Below, in pieces: positions 46,475 to 64,000 of a stretch of 64,000 nt of DNA. The stretch covers positions 30,483 to 94,482 of the forward strand of contig JAMDAY010000019.1 of assembly GCA_023484515.1 (NCBI GenBank), given 5' to 3'. The notes under the pieces were generated by a model. That model made no database searches, had not been told where the DNA came from, and saw only the letters and a list, made by a program, of their open reading frames with translations. Source of the stretch: Patescibacteria group bacterium. Its GTDB lineage: Bacteria > Patescibacteriota > Doudnabacteria > UBA920. Position 1 is the stretch's first letter; every line of letters starts with the position of its first letter. Position numbers and translations under genes: made by a program.

Positions 46475-46552
46475 AAATTGGCCTTTAGTTTAGATAAATT
46501 ATACCACACTTTGCATATTAACTCCAAATTATAATCATTTTTATACTTTATG

Positions 46553-46918
46553 TCAAACCCTGCCTTGCTGACGCCATTTTTCTTCCAGCTTGCGGATTTC
46601 TTCCTCGTTAAAACCAAAATGATGGCCAATTTCGTGCCAAACCACACGCCGGATTAGATTTGGGATTAGATTTTCCGAACCGGCAAAACGCTCTATGGTG
46701 CCTTTCCAAATGGTAATCTTGTCCGGCAAAACCGGATTATACCCGTATGTCGAGCCGCGATGCAACTGCGAAACGCCATGATACAACCCGAACAGGCTGT
46801 TATTGGGCGACTCGCCGTCTTCCAGCACAATTTCCACGTTATCCATCTTTTCCTTAATGGATTCCGGCAGCGCCTCTACCGCCCGGTTAATATGTTGTTC
46901 AAATTCTTCCCTGGTCAT
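46553..46918 (-). CDS. small zincin-like metallopeptidase (HEIGHH motif)
   Basis: VVWHEIGHHFGFNEEEI contains HExxH. Confidence 0.6.
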   Translation of the reverse strand: MTREEFEQHINRAVEALPESIKEKMDNVEIVLEDGESPNNSLFGLYHGVSQLHRGSTYGYNPVLPDKITIWKGTIERFAGSENLIPNLIRRVVWHEIGHHFGFNEEEIRKLEEKWRQQGRV

Positions 46919-57910: not shown

Positions 57911-58747
57911 TTACTTGCTTCTCCTTTTAATGATCATGTGATTGCTATACTTCTTCTTCAGCCTGGTCTTTACGCCCAGGGCATGCTTGCCCCAGGGAGT
58001 TTTTGGATATTTCAAGCCAATCGGGTTTACGCCTTCACCGCCGCCATGGGGGTGGTCTACCGGGTTCATAACCTTGCCGCGCACGCTGGGGCGCCAGCCC
58101 ATCAGCCTTCTGCGCCCGGCTTTGCCCAAACGCACGTTCATCCAGTCCGCGTTGGCTAATTGCCCAACGGAAGCCGAAGCGGTTTCCTTAACGCGGCGAA
58201 TTTCCCCGCTGGGCAGCTTCAGCAGCGCATAGCCAGCTTCCAGGTTTTGCAAAATGACATAATTTCCCGCGCTCCTGGCCAGTTTGCCGCCTTGTCCGGG
58301 AATTAATTCCACGTCATGCACGAAAGTTCCGACCGGAATGTTTTTTAAAGGCATCCTGTTGCCCGGCGCAATGTCCGCAGTTTCGTCGTAAGCCACTTTG
58401 TCTCCAACTTTTACGCCTTGCGGGGTCAGAATATAGCGCTTGTCGCCGTCGCGGTAAGCCAAAAGGGAAATAAACGCGCTGCGGGTGGGGTCGTATTCTA
58501 TGGTGCGCACAATTGCCGGTACGCCTCTCTTGTCCTGCCGGAAAAAGTCCACCAGCCTGGTTTTGCGCCTGAATCCGCCGCCCTGGTGCCGCACGGTTAT
58601 TTTGCCGCTATGGTTGCGGCCGGCCGGCCTGGCTTTGCTGGAAATCAGGTTCCGGGGCGTCTTTTCGTTTTTCCGCAAAACCGAATAATCGGTCACACTG
58701 TGGATGCGCCTGCCCGCACTGGTTGGTTTGTATAATTTTACTGCCAT
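57911..58747 (-). CDS. rplB: 50S ribosomal protein L2
   Basis: GGGEG-like HPHGGGEGVNP motif. Confidence 0.95.
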   Translation of the reverse strand: MAVKLYKPTSAGRRIHSVTDYSVLRKNEKTPRNLISSKARPAGRNHSGKITVRHQGGGFRRKTRLVDFFRQDKRGVPAIVRTIEYDPTRSAFISLLAYRDGDKRYILTPQGVKVGDKVAYDETADIAPGNRMPLKNIPVGTFVHDVELIPGQGGKLARSAGNYVILQNLEAGYALLKLPSGEIRRVKETASASVGQLANADWMNVRLGKAGRRRLMGWRPSVRGKVMNPVDHPHGGGEGVNPIGLKYPKTPWGKHALGVKTRLKKKYSNHMIIKRRSK

Positions 58748-58845: not shown

Positions 58846-59208
58846 TTAAATTGTCTCTGTCGCCCCTTCTATCTTGTCTCCCTGTTTTAGGGTTACGACC
58901 GCTTTTTTAAAACCGGAAGTTGTGCCGCTAATCCTGCCGTAATTCCTGGCCTTGCCTTTGTTGTTTATTACGTTCACCTGCGTCACCCTGACTTTATAAA
59001 CGCCTTCCACCGCTTTCTTGATTAAAATCTTATTGGCTTCTTTGCGGACCAAAAAAACGTACTTATTGCCTTGCACCAAATGGCTGGCTTTTTCCGAAAC
59101 CCTGGGCTGCACCAAAATTCCGCCAAAAGCGGCAGCCGGTTTTCCCGCGCCGCGCTTTACGGACTGCTGATTCCCCGCTTCTTCTTCTTTTTTGCTGAAT
59201 ATGGCCAT
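58846..59208 (-). CDS. rplW: 50S ribosomal protein L23 (N-terminal extension)
   Basis: L23 core; position in the operon. Confidence 0.85.
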   Translation of the reverse strand: MAIFSKKEEEAGNQQSVKRGAGKPAAAFGGILVQPRVSEKASHLVQGNKYVFLVRKEANKILIKKAVEGVYKVRVTQVNVINNKGKARNYGRISGTTSGFKKAVVTLKQGDKIEGATETI

Positions 59209-59295: not shown

Positions 59296-59955
59296 CTAAC
59301 TCCTCGGCTTTGCATCTTTAAGGTATACTTTCTCAATTACCGGCAACGATTCTTCCAAAACGATAATACTGTCTGCTTTTAATACGTCTACAACATTCAG
59401 GCTGCTTGCCAGCACGGGATTTATCTCCGGGAGATTCCGGGAAGCCCGGGCCAGCTTGTCGTCTTTTTTCGGCATTAAGAACATCTGTTTGCCGCCTAAA
59501 TCTTTAATCTTGGCCTTTAAGTCCTTTAGCACCCCGGCAAACTCCTTGGTTTTCGGCTGGCTTAAAACAACTTCTTTTACCACAACCAGTTTGCCGTCTT
59601 TTGCCTTGTCCGAGAGGGACATAAACAGGGCCTTGGTCTTGGCTTTCTTGTTCAGCTTTAACTCCCAGTTCCGGTTGGCGCGCGGGCCGAAAGTAATGCC
59701 GCCGTGGCGCCAAATGGGGCTGCGGGTGCTGCCTGCCCTGGCCCGTCCGGTCCCTTTCTGCTTCCAGGGTTTTTTGCCGCCGCCGCTTACTTCGCCCCTG
59801 GTCTTGGTGCTGCTGGTGCCCTGGCGGCTGTTAGCCAGGCTGACCCTGACCGCTTCCGCAAGCAAATGGGCATTGGGCTTTATTCCAAAAATCTTCGGAT
59901 TAAGGTCTACTTCACCGATCACTTCGGCCTTCTGGTTGTAGATACTTGTCTTCAT
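59296..59955 (-). CDS. rplD: 50S ribosomal protein L4
   Basis: GGGKKPWKQKGTGRARAGS. Confidence 0.9.
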   Translation of the reverse strand: MKTSIYNQKAEVIGEVDLNPKIFGIKPNAHLLAEAVRVSLANSRQGTSSTKTRGEVSGGGKKPWKQKGTGRARAGSTRSPIWRHGGITFGPRANRNWELKLNKKAKTKALFMSLSDKAKDGKLVVVKEVVLSQPKTKEFAGVLKDLKAKIKDLGGKQMFLMPKKDDKLARASRNLPEINPVLASSLNVVDVLKADSIIVLEESLPVIEKVYLKDAKPRS

Positions 59956-60023
59956 AAATGTTAGCGATTAGCTTGTAGCTTTTAGCGATTAGCGGCTAAA
60001 CGCTAATGACTAAGTGCTAAATG

Positions 60024-60713
60024 CTATTTCTTTTTCTTTTCTTCCCTCACTTCCTGGAACTTGACTAAAGGCTTTACCTTGCCGGTAGATACCACTTTAA
60101 CCATGGCATTGCGATGTCCGGGAACCGCGCCTTTTAAAATTAGGAGATTTTTGGCCGCGTCCACTTCCACTACCTGCAAATTCTTAACAGTTACCTGTTC
60201 GTTCCCCATGTGTCCGGCCATTCTTAACCCTTTGCGGGTATGCTGCGGAAACCGTTGGCCAATTGACCCGACCGACCTGGGTCGGTCATGGCCGTGACTG
60301 GCCGGAAACCCGGCAAAACCGTGGCGCTTAATTGCCCCGGCAAAACCGCGGCCCTTGCTGACGCCGACGACGTTTACCATTTCCCCGGGCTTAAAGCCGG
60401 ACAGATCCAGCTTTTGGCCTTTTTGGAAATCTTTAACTTCGGCCGTGCGGACTTCCGCTAAAACGGAAAAAGTACCCAATTCCTTTAAATGTCCTTGTAA
60501 AGACTTGGATACCTTTTTCTTTTTGCCTGCCCCGTCGCGGAGCTTTACGGGGCCAATGCCAATTTGCACGGCATTGTATTTGTCCTTGCCGTCTGCGGAT
60601 TTTACCTGGGTTACGGTCATTTCCGCGCCCTGAATTACGGTTACCGGGAAAACTTCCCCGCTCGGGTCAAAATGCTGGGTCATATTCAACTTTTTGCCGA
60701 TGAGGAAATTCAT
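60024..60713 (-). CDS. rplC: 50S ribosomal protein L3; start moved to MNFLIGKKLNMTQHF
   Basis: The ORF-track N-terminal 27 aa translate the repeat spacer (gatataagat..), so the real start is the internal Met. Confidence 0.85.
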   Translation of the reverse strand: MNFLIGKKLNMTQHFDPSGEVFPVTVIQGAEMTVTQVKSADGKDKYNAVQIGIGPVKLRDGAGKKKKVSKSLQGHLKELGTFSVLAEVRTAEVKDFQKGQKLDLSGFKPGEMVNVVGVSKGRGFAGAIKRHGFAGFPASHGHDRPRSVGSIGQRFPQHTRKGLRMAGHMGNEQVTVKNLQVVEVDAAKNLLILKGAVPGHRNAMVKVVSTGKVKPLVKFQEVREEKKKK

Positions 60714-60955
60714 AAAGTAATTTAAGATATAAGATTTAGGATATAAGATGTAAGATTTGAAAATCCTAAATCTTAAATAAAAATTGCGGGACAATTTACC
60801 CGCAAAAAAATATCAAAAGATATTATTTGGAGTAAATCGTTTTCTGCCTTCTTGAGCTTAAATGCTTTGGGATGGCAGAACTAATCTACTTGCTATTGAT
60901 TTATCTGAAAATGGCCCGTGCTTGATCCGTATGGCTATTCGTATTTGGAACCGGC

Positions 60956-61282
60956 CTAGCTCATCTTGATTTCCACGTCCACGCCTGCCGGCAAATTCAG
61001 GTTGGTCAGGGCGTCTATGGTTTTGGGCGTAGCTGCCAGAATATCAATTAACCTCTTATGCACCCGCATTTCAAACTGCTCCCTGCTGTCCTTGTGCACG
61101 AACGTAGAACGCAAGACCGTATATTTACTGTGCTCCGTGGGCAGCGGGATTGGCCCGGAAATACTGGCTCCAGTCCTCTTGGCAGTATCTACAATCTGCT
61201 TGGAACTTTGGTCTATGAGCTTATGGTCGTAAGCCCGTATTTTTATGCGGATTCTTGGAGCTTTTTCTGCAACCTTTTCCAT
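60956..61282 (-). CDS. rpsJ: 30S ribosomal protein S10
   Basis: [14 protein letters not shown]... Confidence 0.95.
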
Positions 61283-61353
61283 CTAGATTTGTAAAAGAGA
61301 TTAATTTAATAAATTGGCTCTATTTACCCTGGTAAATTAGGGTCACTTGGCAT

Positions 61354-61382
61354 ATTTTATACTACCTTTCAAAATTTGTCAA
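61354..61382 (-). promoter_or_regulatory. sigma70-like promoter for the S10 operon (TTGACA-17-TAAAAT on the minus strand)
   Basis: The minus strand reads TTGACAaattttgaaaggtagtaTAAAAT about 75 nt upstream of the rpsJ start. Confidence 0.55.
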
Positions 61383-61462
61383 ATGTATTTTTTCACTTTT
61401 AATACAAAGAGGTTCTCGGAAATTAAAAATGAAAAAAATGCATAAAAATGCAAAAAATAGTA

Positions 61463-61491
61463 TTGACATTTTTCCTAAAAAGTGCTATAAT
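61463..61491 (+). promoter_or_regulatory. consensus sigma70 promoter (TTGACA-17-TGcTATAAT) on the plus strand, divergent from the S10 promoter
   Basis: Exact -35 TTGACA, 17-nt spacer, extended -10 TGCTATAAT. It sits ~185 nt upstream of the 61674 ATG. Confidence 0.65.
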
Positions 61492-61673
61492 ATGGGGTAA
61501 ATTCCAACCGAAGGGTATTTTGGAAACAATTTACTTGCGGGAAAAGATTTGGCAACGCGGAAACCGCTGCCAATTCCCTTCTCGCAAGGACTATCCGCAA
61601 GGAGGAACTTGCATTTAGGCCTATCCGGTGACGGAAATGCCGGCGTCGAAGGACGATAAACTGGAGACTAGCA

Positions 61674-62159
61674 ATGGCCATAACCGGCCACGAAAAGCGT
61701 TCAACGCTCTTGGCATATGCGGGGATAATTCCCGCCGTACCTTGCCAGGCGCAAATCTGCACCACCATCACCTGCGCCAGGCGAATCGCCAAAGCGCTGC
61801 TGTGGTACCCGCTTATGCATTACCCGCGCGGATATTCGCTCCTGTTGGATACGCGCAAAGTTCCCTGCCTGGGACTGCAACGTGACGGAGTTACAGTTGT
61901 TTTCACCGGCTGGGGAAATGTCAAATACTGGCAGGCGCAATTTTTACAAGACGACATCGTTACCGGATTTTTACAGGAACTGGTTGAGATGTTCGAAATG
62001 GAATGCGCCGCCAGCCAGAAAGACCTCCATGACCATGAACAAAGGTTTCGCAGGTCAAGTTACTACTCCAACCTGCAAAGCCAGGAACTCCGCACGCGTG
62101 TAAATGCGGCGAATAAGGCTATCAAAGAGTTGAAAAAAGAATTCGGGCTCTTGCTGTAA
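61674..62159 (+). CDS. orphan Cys-containing hypothetical protein (161 aa), GC-rich, inserted between tuf and rpsJ
   Basis: SD-like GGAGA lies 8 nt upstream. Higher GC than neighbours. No motif recognised. Confidence 0.45.
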   Translation: MAITGHEKRSTLLAYAGIIPAVPCQAQICTTITCARRIAKALLWYPLMHYPRGYSLLLDTRKVPCLGLQRDGVTVVFTGWGNVKYWQAQFLQDDIVTGFLQELVEMFEMECAASQKDLHDHEQRFRRSSYYSNLQSQELRTRVNAANKAIKELKKEFGLLL

Positions 62160-62261
62160 GCTGTAACGGGACAGGTCTTTTGGGTAAATATAAAAATTTC
62201 CTATGCGGCTAAATATATTAGCCAAAACTTAAGCCATAATGCAATCAAAACAACAAAAGCC

Positions 62262-62372
62262 GGATTTTGGATTACCGAAAAATTAAACGGTATATCCTCC
62301 GGCTTTTAAAAACTCTAATTTGATATCAAATTAAAACTCGCCCCGAGCATAGCAAGGGGCAAGTTTTGGATT
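62262..62372. terminator. two terminator hairpins between convergent genes (agccgga..tccggct+T4; ctcgcccc..ggggcaag with flanking T/A runs)
   Basis: Seen in sequence. Confidence 0.5.
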
Positions 62373-62397
62373 TAGGATATTAAATCCGTAAATATAA

Positions 62398-62652
62398 CTA
62401 TTCCAAAATTGCTTTTAAATCCAAGTTTAATTTTTCTCCCACTAACTTAATGGCTTTTTCGTATTTTTCCATCCTCGCCCGCATTACCGACATTTCTATG
62501 TTCCAGTCCTTTGTCTGTTTGGCAATTTGATCCAGTATAATGGTATGCTGTTCAAGCGTTTGTTTTAAAGGTTCAAGTTTAAAGTCCAGCTTCTCTTCAA
62601 GCTTAACATCAAGTAATTCCTCAATGGCTTTTAAAGTAATTTCTTCCGCCAT
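62398..62652 (-). CDS. small coiled-coil hypothetical protein (84 aa)
   Basis: Heptad-like charged pattern. Lies downstream of tuf. Confidence 0.4.
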   Translation of the reverse strand: MAEEITLKAIEELLDVKLEEKLDFKLEPLKQTLEQHTIILDQIAKQTKDWNIEMSVMRARMEKYEKAIKLVGEKLNLDLKAILE

Positions 62653-62722
62653 ATTTTTATTGTTAATTTCTAATTTCGGCTTTTTTATATTCTATCTCAC
62701 ATCATCGCATCTGTCAAAACAA

Positions 62723-62746
62723 AAATCCGCCATAAAAGACGGATTT
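62723..62746 (-). terminator. terminator hairpin after tuf (aaatccgtc..gacggattt plus U-run on the minus strand)
   Basis: Seen in sequence. Confidence 0.5.
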
Positions 62747-62773
62747 TTGCCAATAAACTGTCTACTGATACGT

Positions 62774-63964
62774 TTATTTTATAATCTTTGTGACAACGCC
62801 GGCGCCGACAGTGTGGCCGCCTTCTCTAATGGCGAATTTGCCTTTTTCTTCCAAGGCTACCGGGGTGATCAATTTGATGGTTAAGTCCACGGTGTCGCCC
62901 GGCATGACCATTTCCTGGCCTTCCGGCAAAGTGACTTCGCCGGTCACGTCCGTGGTGCGGACGTAAAATTGCGGCTTGTAACCCTTAAAGAACGGGGTGT
63001 GGCGGCCGCCTTCTTCCTTGGTCAGAATATACACGTTGGCGGTAAATTCGGTGTGCGGGGTAATGGATCCGGGCTTGGCCAAAACCTGCCCGCGTTCCAC
63101 TTCGTCTTTCTTGGTGCCGCGGAGCAAAATTCCGGCGTTGTCGCCTGCCATGCCGCTGTCCAACTGCTTGTTGAACATTTCAATGCCGGTAACCACGGTT
63201 TTGGTCGTGGGGCGGATACCGACAATTTCCACTTCGTCGTTCAACTTGACTTCACCGCGCTCAATACGGCCGGTCACCACGGTGCCGCGGCCCTCAATGG
63301 AGAAAATGTCTTCAATAGGCATTAAGTACGGCTTGTCAGTCTCGCGCTTGGGATCCGGGATGTAGCTGTCCAAAGTTTCCATCAACTTCATAATGGAAGG
63401 TTCGCCAATTTCCGAAGTATCCCCTTCCAGGGCCTTTAAGGCAGACCCGCGGATAATGGGAGTGTCTTTGCCCGGGAATTGGTATTTGGTCAGCAAGTCG
63501 CGAATTTCTTCTTCCACAAGGTCCAACAATTCCGCGTCCTGAACCTGGTCTACTTTATTCATGTAGACTACAATATAAGGCACGCCTACCTGACGGGCCA
63601 ACAGGATGTGTTCACGGGTCTGGGGCATGGGGCCGTCAGCGGCCGATACGACCAGGATTGCGCCATCCATCTGCGCGGCGCCGGTAATCATGTTTTTGAT
63701 GTAGTCGGCGTGGCCGGGACAGTCCACGTGCGCATAGTGGCGCTTGGGGGTTTCGTATTCTACGTGGGCGGTGTTAATGGTAATACCGCGGGCTTTTTCT
63801 TCCGGCGCGTTGTCAATACTGTCATAAGCGCGCGCCTTGGCCCCGCCGGTCTTGGAGAGCACGGTGGTAATGGCCGCGGTCAAAGTGGTTTTGCCGTGGT
63901 CAACGTGGCCAATGGTTCCCACGTTCAAGTGCGGCTTGCTGCGGTCAAACTTTCCTTCTGCCAT
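62774..63964 (-). CDS. tuf: elongation factor Tu
   Basis: [18 protein letters not shown] and NKVD GTPase motifs. Confidence 0.97.
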
Positions 63965-64000
63965 TTGCAGTTTCCTTTCCTTAGCTTATAGCTTTTAGCT

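Follow-up and report, generated by a model that had tools for sequence, protein, structure and literature searches.

This study concerns a small gene and its leader in a stretch of 64,000 nucleotides (nt) from a Patescibacteria group bacterium of the Doudnabacteria lineage (assembly GCA_023484515.1, contig JAMDAY010000019.1, positions 30,483 to 94,482 of the forward strand), hereafter called the window. The 3' end of the window corresponds to the str/S10 region, read on the minus strand. Between tuf (62774-63964, minus strand) and rpsJ (60956-61282, minus strand) lies a spacer of 1,491 nt which contains, on the plus strand, an open reading frame (ORF) for a protein of 161 amino acids (aa) with five cysteines (61674-62159, NCBI M1383_03740). 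As judged from sequence comparisons, this ORF represents a clade-restricted, syntenic small gene preceded by a newly recognized conserved leader, and it occupies a slot, located between tuf and the S10 operon, whose content is hypervariable. Because the leader is better conserved than the neighboring rpsJ, it is likely to be a new regulatory RNA element. We rate as about evenly balanced the chances that it functions as a gene-specific translational operator, in which a trans-acting factor would act at a block of two hairpins (P2 and P3) and control access to the ribosome-binding site (RBS) of the 161-aa gene.

The leader extends from about 61497 to 61673, roughly 177 nt, with a folding energy of -64.9 kcal/mol and a fold z-score of -4.3 (-3.9 in the comparison with control genes given below). 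A preliminary description of this DNA, made from the sequence alone, had proposed a structured leader of some 185 nt with several hairpins. The structure stands, the length is somewhat shorter, and of the two hairpins singled out, gcggaaaccgc turns out to be the tip of a 55-nt hairpin while the gaaggg...cccttc pairing does not occur in the minimum-energy fold. From its 5' end, the leader comprises a small hairpin (61503-61525) that is found in the window genome only and is absent from the other four leaders described below; the long, imperfect 55-nt hairpin, which we call P1 (61534-61588); a stretch resembling a Shine-Dalgarno (SD) element, AAGGAGGA (61599-61606), about 70 nt upstream of the start codon (76 nt when measured from AAGGAGGA to that codon); and a 45-nt block (61617-61661) made up of P2, P3 and an A-rich tail. 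P2 pairs 61625-61630 with 61638-61643 (CCGGUG/UGCCGG) around an A-N-GGAAA loop, and P3 pairs 61644-61647 with 61652-61655 (CGUC/GACG). Next comes the RBS (61663-61676), consisting of GGAG, a 7-nt spacer and ATG. A terminator scan found no plus-strand terminator inside the leader. We also discarded a "switch" helix in which the segment following AAGGAGGA would pair with P1's 3' strand: promising on inspection, it did not outperform shuffled sequences.

The comparison drew on five distinct leaders (those of the window and of loci L081, L082, L083 and L088), which represent some four or five species. Each of the five has P1 in its minimum-energy fold, close to or right at the 5' end; in four, no more than about 8 nt separate the predicted 5' end from the start of P1. 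Its structure is conserved and its sequence is not: in an alignment built by hand around the structure, 49 of the 50 cells of the basal 10 bp hold standard pairs (98%), with two or three pair types at 9 of the 10 positions, as compared to 36-52% paired in controls with slid partners. Within the inner stem, an A-U pair is exchanged for G-C between L081 and L088. AAGGAGGA follows P1 after 10-13 nt, its AGGAGGA being invariant in all five leaders, and the block begins another 9-11 nt on. Start codons 3' of AGGAGGA are either absent or differ in frame and position from one leader to the next, and no conserved ORF begins there. Upstream, the -35 box is TTGACA at every locus except L083 (TTGACT), and all five leaders then share an A-rich extended -10 element, which reads AAAAAGTGCTATAAT in the window and L083 and differs from it by single bases in L081, L088 and L082.

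The block is conserved in a different manner. Thirty-three of its 45 columns are invariant and pairwise identities range from 78 to 93%, against 75-80% for rpsJ DNA (85-90% for the rpsJ protein) and 60-69% for the DNA of the 161-aa ORF, whose products share only 28-41% identity in distant pairs. All 50 pair cells of P2 and P3 are canonical, including one two-sided change from CG to UA and one change from UG to UA. The N of A-N-GGAAA is the sole variable base of the P2 loop; the P3 loop varies (GAAG, GGCG, GGUG or CAAG) on a constant stem. Spacing relative to the gene is likewise narrow, with 16-19 nt from the end of P3 to the start codon and 1-3 nt from the end of the block to the SD; an SD-like sequence lies 6-8 nt before the start codon in all five, namely in the window (GGAG), in L081 and L088 (GAGG), in L082 (AGGG) and in L083, where it contains GGA. 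The large hairpin is conserved as structure only; the truly conserved element is the 45-nt block, to which the preliminary description had drawn no attention.

Searches with a covariance model (R1, covering the region from AAGGAGGA to the start codon) and a fuzzy search for the block, allowing up to 9 mismatches, showed the element to be unique to the five loci in about 0.9 Mb of DNA, where it occurs once each and before the 161-aa family only. One motif per locus, placed solely ahead of one gene family, is a pattern typical of gene-specific protein-binding leaders. The block DNA pattern had zero matches in a JGI metagenome scan and in viral contigs. At the gathering threshold, Rfam 15 yielded no family in the whole window or in relatives L001-L007; relaxing the threshold to E <= 10 over 60650-62800 produced chance-level matches only, which on 61497-61673 came down to an artefact of the A-rich promoter. 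ARAGORN found no tRNA or tmRNA in the window. Hence, of the earlier suggestion that the leader is a cis-regulatory RNA, what holds is that this is the best-conserved part of the cassette and fits such a role, whereas the Rfam run assigned it to no known riboswitch or leader family.

The invariance of AAGGAGGA must be viewed against the translation signals of this organism. In the 30 nt upstream of 34 window genes (e.g., 57911-58747, 58846-59208, 59296-59955, 60024-60713 and 60956-61282), GGAG, GAGG or AGGA occurs at -18 to -4 in about 4. The ribosomal-protein genes examined all have no SD and are AT-rich upstream, and only one of the eight occurrences of AAGGAGG in the 64 kb is in RBS position. 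Since most window genes lack an SD, the invariant AAGGAGGA is not background; for the same reason, use of the anti-SD sequence is itself uncertain. Neither an rRNA gene nor an rnj gene was found in the window. The combination of an invariant upstream SD-like element and a genuine SD at one gene is unusual for this organism.

Several lines of evidence indicate that the 161-aa ORF is a genuine gene. Its codon-frame score is 0.254 (0.42 ± 0.11 in 30 control genes), and those of the overlapping alternative ORFs are all about 0. The GC content, about 0.52, had been described as higher than that of the surroundings; it is so only against AT-rich intergenic DNA, and GC at the three codon positions (0.55/0.40/0.61) matches that of other window genes (about 0.52/0.37/0.58). 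With a fold z-score of -2.3, the ORF body does not fall outside the spread of the 30 control genes (mean -0.38, standard deviation 1.6); the structured parts of the transcript are the leader and the 3' untranslated region (UTR; z = -3.4). The whole predicted transcript of 824 nt has z = -5.5.

The ORF had also been called an orphan, and word-indexed protein searches with each ORF taken singly indeed recovered the query alone. An exhaustive HMMER scan of 1.84 billion representatives nonetheless returned two homologues, P0003 (E = 1e-10) and P0004 (E = 6e-6), to which a profile search added P0005 and a cluster look-up P0006, making four distinct homologues (P0003/P0006, P0004, P0005) of which the window protein is the founding member in a very small new family. 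Identities to the window protein are 35-41%. The gene call for P0004 is too short, an in-frame GTG 144 nt upstream recovering the N-terminal similarity. Family members share the invariant motifs LPRGY, FTG (FTGW) and, at the C terminus, I-x-x-(L/I)-K-x-x-F. Wherever flanking sequence is available, the homologous gene adjoins rpsJ or tuf, with rpsJ divergent, and L088 displays the complete order rpsJ, 161-aa homologue, tuf. The preliminary description had held that finding the ORF to be a conserved syntenic gene of known function would speak against it; this applies only by half, the ORF being conserved and syntenic, with no function that could be assigned. No family was identified among Pfam, NCBIfam, PHROGs, PADLOC or PDB sequence profiles, and a metagenome scan using the protein gave no match. 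Structure prediction, recommended earlier, was carried out with AlphaFold2: the predicted local distance difference test (pLDDT) score was 45.9 from the single sequence, which is unusable, and rose to 77.9 with the four-sequence alignment. This model combines a helix and a sheet of three strands with a long helical hairpin, but it did not lead to a family, as fold searches against PDB and BFVD gave generic coiled-coil matches only and no RNA-binding assignment.

That the tuf-rpsJ junction is normally compact and here holds an insert of about 1.5 kb had been recognized correctly. The distance is 22-141 nt in more distant Patescibacteria. In the six closest species representatives (L001, L002, L004, L005, L006 and L007, all Doudnabacteria-like, with L3 proteins 58-74% identical), it ranges widely: 240, 722, 1,141, 1,621, 2,608 and 3,136 nt. 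The cargo differs as well, being an 81-aa membrane ORF in L001, a 109-aa ORF and a TPR-like ORF in L002, housekeeping-looking genes in L005, an HD-domain protein and small ORFs in L006, and a TPR-like ORF in L007. Three of these six relatives lacking the gene (L001, L002 and L004) still have a consensus promoter that points away from that of the S10 operon. In the "empty" slot of L004 (1685-1925), a TTGACA-17-TGCTATAAT promoter is followed about 15 nt downstream by the bidirectional tuf terminator, and the -35 boxes of the divergent promoters are merely 18 nt apart. Varied cargo and a retained promoter thus define the junction as a hypervariable slot with an ancestral divergent promoter. Carriers of the 161-aa gene (the window, L081/L088 and L082) are interleaved with non-carriers (L001, L002, L004 and others) by L3 identity, which fits an old gene of the slot that was repeatedly lost or replaced. 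The arrangement is not an assembly artefact, as the locus DNA is 100% identical in independently assembled contigs from two further sequencing runs (SRR10252151 and SRR10267473). An exact look-up with the S10 protein returned solely contigs identical to the window. As a separate observation, four small unannotated ORFs (138, 140, 66 and 85 aa) lie between fusA and tuf in L088 (7040-9257), which suggests that the clade's str cluster has another variable slot.

The plus-strand promoter of the window (61463-61491), TTGACA-17-TGcTATAAT, matches the consensus at 12 of 12 positions and has the TG of an extended -10. As had been noted before, it stands back to back with the S10-operon promoter ahead of rpsJ (TTGACA-17-TAAAAT, 61354-61382, minus strand, 11 of 12). 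The -35 boxes are 80 bp apart. The S10 promoter region is kept in L001, L002, L005 and L007, as judged by blastn. Perfect TTGACA-N16-18-TATAAT sites number two in the 64 kb, for an expectation of 0.02, and of the window's six TTGACA-N16-18-TANAAT sites, three fall within the tuf-rpsJ spacer. The plus-strand promoter is very likely real. Immediately upstream, a region of A-tracts (61424-61462), which includes inverted repeats I2 and I13 and belongs, together with the side of the S10 promoter, to a near-palindromic arrangement, may function like an UP element. The other perfect TTGACA-N17-TATAAT match of the window is at 46528-46556 on the minus strand.

How might the leader work? We envision the spacer as a slot, hypervariable within the clade, that is occupied by two small genes, both real and native to the chromosome. 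The 161-aa gene would be transcribed from an ancestral consensus sigma-70 promoter diverging from that of the S10 operon, and its 5' UTR of ~177 nt would be a functional cis-acting leader composed of P1, presumably maintained by compensatory changes, of AAGGAGGA, which would not initiate translation, and of the P2/P3 block. A trans-acting factor would recognize this block along with GGA-containing motifs, and would so control access of the 30S subunit to the adjacent RBS. The factor would most plausibly be a protein, either the product of the 161-aa gene itself or a CsrA-type GGA-binding regulator. P1 and the SD-like element would additionally protect the 5' end of the mRNA; by analogy with known leaders, these two parts may serve stability rather than control. 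The promoter match, the coding signal, the synteny of the homologues, a leader that outconserves rpsJ as nucleotide sequence, the conserved structure of P1 and the uniqueness of the motif are observations; we infer transcription from 61497, action at the RNA rather than the DNA level, the existence and identity of the binding factor and the direction of regulation. A translational operator is the arrangement that best fits a leader specific to one gene family, conserved more strongly as nucleotide sequence than the protein is, with two small hairpins and an invariant purine-rich loop abutting the RBS and neither a terminator nor a supported switch helix.

A number of points weigh against this interpretation. 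The distinct leaders compared are few, five in all and drawn from roughly four or five species, and the P1 alignment was fitted to the structure by hand. The covariation of P2 and P3 is matched by 46 of 500 shuffles, a statistic that is weak because the block varies so little. GGA is present at the true SD in only two of the five leaders (the window and L083). With the Escherichia coli and Bacillus subtilis CsrA proteins as queries, tblastn did not find csrA in the 64-kb window or the homologue loci, and the alternative switch helix, which a conformational mechanism might use, was at shuffle level. Autoregulation by the 161-aa product is equally possible, but the predicted isoelectric points of the homologues scatter from 5.3 to 9.0 and the protein has no recognizable RNA-binding fold.

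Comparison with known systems helps to delimit the operator interpretation. One analogy is with the autoregulatory leaders of ribosomal-protein and other gene-specific operons, such as the E. coli S10 leader with its L4 ligand and the L20 leader (RF00558). These too consist of a structured 5' UTR serving one gene family, and the present leader resembles them in outconserving the coding sequence, abutting the RBS and lying in the str/S10 neighborhood. Unlike in those cases, there is no Rfam leader match here and the regulated protein is not a known ribosomal protein; a weak L20_leader match at 60772-60897 falls outside the leader and below threshold. Leaders bound by CsrA or RsmE provide a second parallel. 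A-N-GGA, with N variable, is displayed in the P2 hairpin loop of all five leaders, and further GGA motifs are found in AAGGAGGA, 32 nt upstream, and in the 3' strand of P3, at a spacing of about 30 nt; several GGA motifs 10-60 nt apart with at least one in a hairpin loop are what multi-site CsrA binding calls for, and the leader has them. On the other hand, a GGA overlapping the SD, also typical of CsrA targets, is not conserved. The flanks of the P2 loop motif do not fit the CsrA consensus from systematic evolution of ligands by exponential enrichment (SELEX). The likeness to CsrA targets, seen in sequence motifs, is accordingly offered as a resemblance that may serve as a lead only. csrA transcripts have been reported among the highly expressed genes of ultra-small groundwater prokaryotes (PMC9938205).

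Two further systems bear on the leader and one on its location. In the STAB-SD and 5' stem-loop mRNA stabilizers of Gram-positive bacteria, exemplified by the cry3A, aprE and ermC leaders, a perfect SD-like sequence that does not initiate translation lies far upstream, together with a hairpin near the 5' end. AGGAGGA qualifies as such a 5'-UTR sequence, having no usable conserved start in any of the five leaders; unlike the classical cases, however, the window genome is mostly without SD-led genes and the leader contains the additional invariant 45-nt block. Guanidine-II (mini-ykkC) riboswitches share the presence of two short hairpins immediately 5' of the RBS. Their loops are ACGR, whereas those seen here are ANGGAAA and GAAG/GGCG/GGUG/CAAG; no Rfam match was obtained at E <= 10, and the downstream 161-aa gene is not a transporter or efflux gene. 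Transcription attenuation finds no counterpart, the leader being devoid of a hairpin-U-tract terminator and the competing helix remaining at shuffle level. As to the location, the tuf-rpsJ junction is reminiscent of hypervariable intergenic islets in that it holds different small, mostly unannotated genes, or none, in sister lineages. It differs from them in having no recombinase, attachment site or repeat signature, and in being inside the most conserved gene cluster of the genome.

Other explanations of the leader have to be weighed against the operator. One is that it regulates nothing and only stabilizes the mRNA or enhances its expression, with the 5' hairpin and the STAB-SD-like element holding a 30S subunit and blocking 5' exonucleases, and the 45-nt block acting as a structural spacer or standby site. 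SD-like mRNA stabilizers in 5' UTRs are documented in Gram-positive bacteria, with STAB-SD and RNase J1 as precedent (PMC4113751), and both the position of P1 close to the predicted 5' end in four of five leaders and the failure of the invariant AAGGAGGA to start a conserved ORF are as this explanation would have it. Yet the 33 invariant positions of the block would go unexplained, and the organism largely dispenses with SD-led initiation; we hold this alternative to be unlikely, though with some claim to attention. A compact, nearly invariant two-hairpin element directly 5' of an RBS might also bring to mind a small riboswitch sensing a metabolite or ion and governing translation of the 161-aa gene, perhaps through a helix closing on the RBS, and pairing of the block's 5' GGCC with the SD or start-codon region does occur when some of the sequences are folded singly. 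The partners of this putative closing helix differ between sequences, however, with no signal of alternative pairing, and the loops do not match the ACGR loops of guanidine-II. Riboswitches, moreover, usually precede transporters or enzymes and several gene families, whereas this element serves a single family with one copy per genome. Since no known RNA family matches, it would have to be a new class; we regard such a riboswitch as distinctly improbable. Still less can be said for the idea that the block encodes a regulatory leader peptide, initiated at the invariant GUG of GGUGA, whose translation or stalling would govern the overlapping main start. The frame GUG-x-GAA-AUG-CCN-GCG-UCN is open in all five leaders, with a conserved core x-E-M-P-A-S-x-D-D-K and two synonymous changes (CCG/CCA and UCG/UCC); the stop of the upstream ORF overlaps the main GTG start in L082 (GUGA), and in L081 and L083 that ORF ends 24-27 nt inside the main one. 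Against this, its ends are not conserved (16 to 85 aa), the GUG has no suitably spaced SD, L081 carries AUA instead of the internal AUG, and in the window the frame continues for 85 aa with a coding score of 0.073. Only four of eleven third positions vary, while synonymous sites of the main ORF are saturated. Third codon positions being mostly invariant in every frame, the constraint on the block is mainly on nucleotides and not on a peptide, and we judge the leader peptide very improbable. The other two frames of the block were dismissed, one having no start codon in L081 and one holding an invariant UGA, as were antisense ORFs over the block, whose frame is not conserved.

Two suggestions of the preliminary description concern the cassette as a whole, and neither holds up well. 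It was proposed that the cassette may be horizontally acquired. Had a mobile or foreign module arrived recently, the conservation of the leader would merely reflect its recent horizontal spread among relatives. The slot is certainly hypervariable (240-3,136 nt, with unrelated cargo in L001-L007), the 161-aa gene is patchy on the L3 tree, and the 84-aa gene that accompanies it in the spacer is present in L081 but not in the near-identical L088. However, codon usage and GC at third positions are native, the location is always the same, the cassette shows no integrase, transposase, tRNA or flanking direct repeats and no matches to phage, plasmid-type or defense families, and the rest of the window contains neither paralogues nor repeats of the insert. 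Proteins at 28-41% identity next to a block at 78-93% speak for old divergence with selective conservation and not for recent transfer, which makes a mobile origin quite improbable in our estimation. It was also proposed that the strong promoter may mainly make a non-coding RNA, the 161-aa ORF then being spurious. The strong folding of the 824-nt transcript and the absence of annotated homologues would be in keeping with that. In contrast, the ORF body has a z-score that is unremarkable beside those of the 30 control genes and a positive codon signal which, like GC at third positions, is typical of the genome, the protein homologues keep their motifs (LPRGY, FTGW, IxxLKxEF) despite saturated DNA divergence, and confidence in the AlphaFold2 model increases with the alignment; a purely non-coding transcript is hardly credible.

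The locus has some general interest. The candidate phyla radiation (CPR), or Patescibacteria, accounts for a large share of bacterial diversity, and few of its cis-regulatory RNAs or lineage-specific proteins have been characterized. The locus provides a concrete candidate for a regulatory leader that outconserves the adjacent ribosomal gene, and a new small-protein family at the tuf-S10 position. It also offers an example of a hypervariable slot, within the most conserved gene cluster of the genome, where the cargo changes and yet three of six relatives have preserved an ancestral consensus promoter. Finally, an invariant strong SD-like element in a mostly SD-less genome gives a handle on translation control in such organisms. 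It is tempting to speculate, at the price of accepting an unlikely premise, that in this SD-poor CPR lineage AAGGAGGA and P2/P3 together could make up a sensor RNA of a new class, be it a small riboswitch or a reader of how available the ribosome's anti-SD tail or a ribosome-associated protein is. A reader of the latter kind would adjust how much is made of a fast-evolving factor, possibly linked to the ribosome, whose gene lies beside the S10 operon. In the same vein, the tuf-rpsJ slot with its ready-made consensus promoter could be imagined as a landing pad for the trial of lineage-specific small genes.

The remainder of the spacer agrees with what had been described, namely a bidirectional terminator followed by a convergent 84-aa coiled-coil ORF. 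The predicted transcript of the 161-aa gene ends at an intrinsic terminator-like hairpin predicted to act on both strands (62255-62307, AAAAGCCGGA...TCCGGCTTTT), in which GCCGGA...TCCGGC is flanked by an A-tract and a T-tract. The 84-aa gene, M1383_03745 (62398-62652, minus strand), encodes a predicted coiled-coil protein and has a codon-frame score of 0.472. It has a promoter-like site, TTGACA-17-TAGAAT (62689-62717, minus strand, 11 of 12 matches), and a terminator-like hairpin identified in the terminator scan (62337-62366, minus strand). A syntenic homologue exists in L081 (50% identity across 44 aa), and the gene is absent from L083 and from L088 (the L3 proteins of L081 and L088 share 98% identity). 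A 78-aa coiled-coil ORF at the same position in L006 shows no detectable homology to it. The tuf terminator hairpin (62713-62744) lies between an A-tract and a T-tract, and its terminator-like parts take part in weak Rfam alignments. Exactly between the two convergent terminators of the cassette lies a perfect 18-nt palindrome, TAATTTGATATCAAATTA (62316-62333), which could be a protein-binding or recombination site.

On the rpsJ side of the spacer, the 5' UTR of rpsJ (61283-61347, minus strand) is predicted to form an S10 leader with the hairpin ACCCUAAUUUACCAGGGU; its TTTACCCTGGTAAAT segment is partly conserved in relatives and could be an S10-operon regulatory hairpin. Within the operon, the spacer between rpsJ and rplC (60714-60955) is unusually long, 242 nt, and comparable spacers of 220-360 nt are found in L001, L002, L081 and L088, versus about 20-35 nt in other phyla. 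It contains a terminator-like hairpin (60805-60784, minus strand) and tandem or inverted TAAGATATAAGATTTAGGATATAAGAT repeats (60719-60778), and could be an internal regulatory or processing element. The following gene, rplC (60024-60713, minus strand), is the most extreme of the 30 control genes in folding, the first 486 nt of its mRNA having z = -5.9 relative to shuffles. Lastly, AGCT/TAGC-rich pseudo-repetitive spacers (agcttatagcttttagc, gttagcgattagcttgtagcttttagcgattagcggctaa) occur between genes of the str/S10 cluster in this clade, at 59956-60023 and 63965-64000 in the window, at about 1010-1080 in L083 and at about 4755-4800 in L001.

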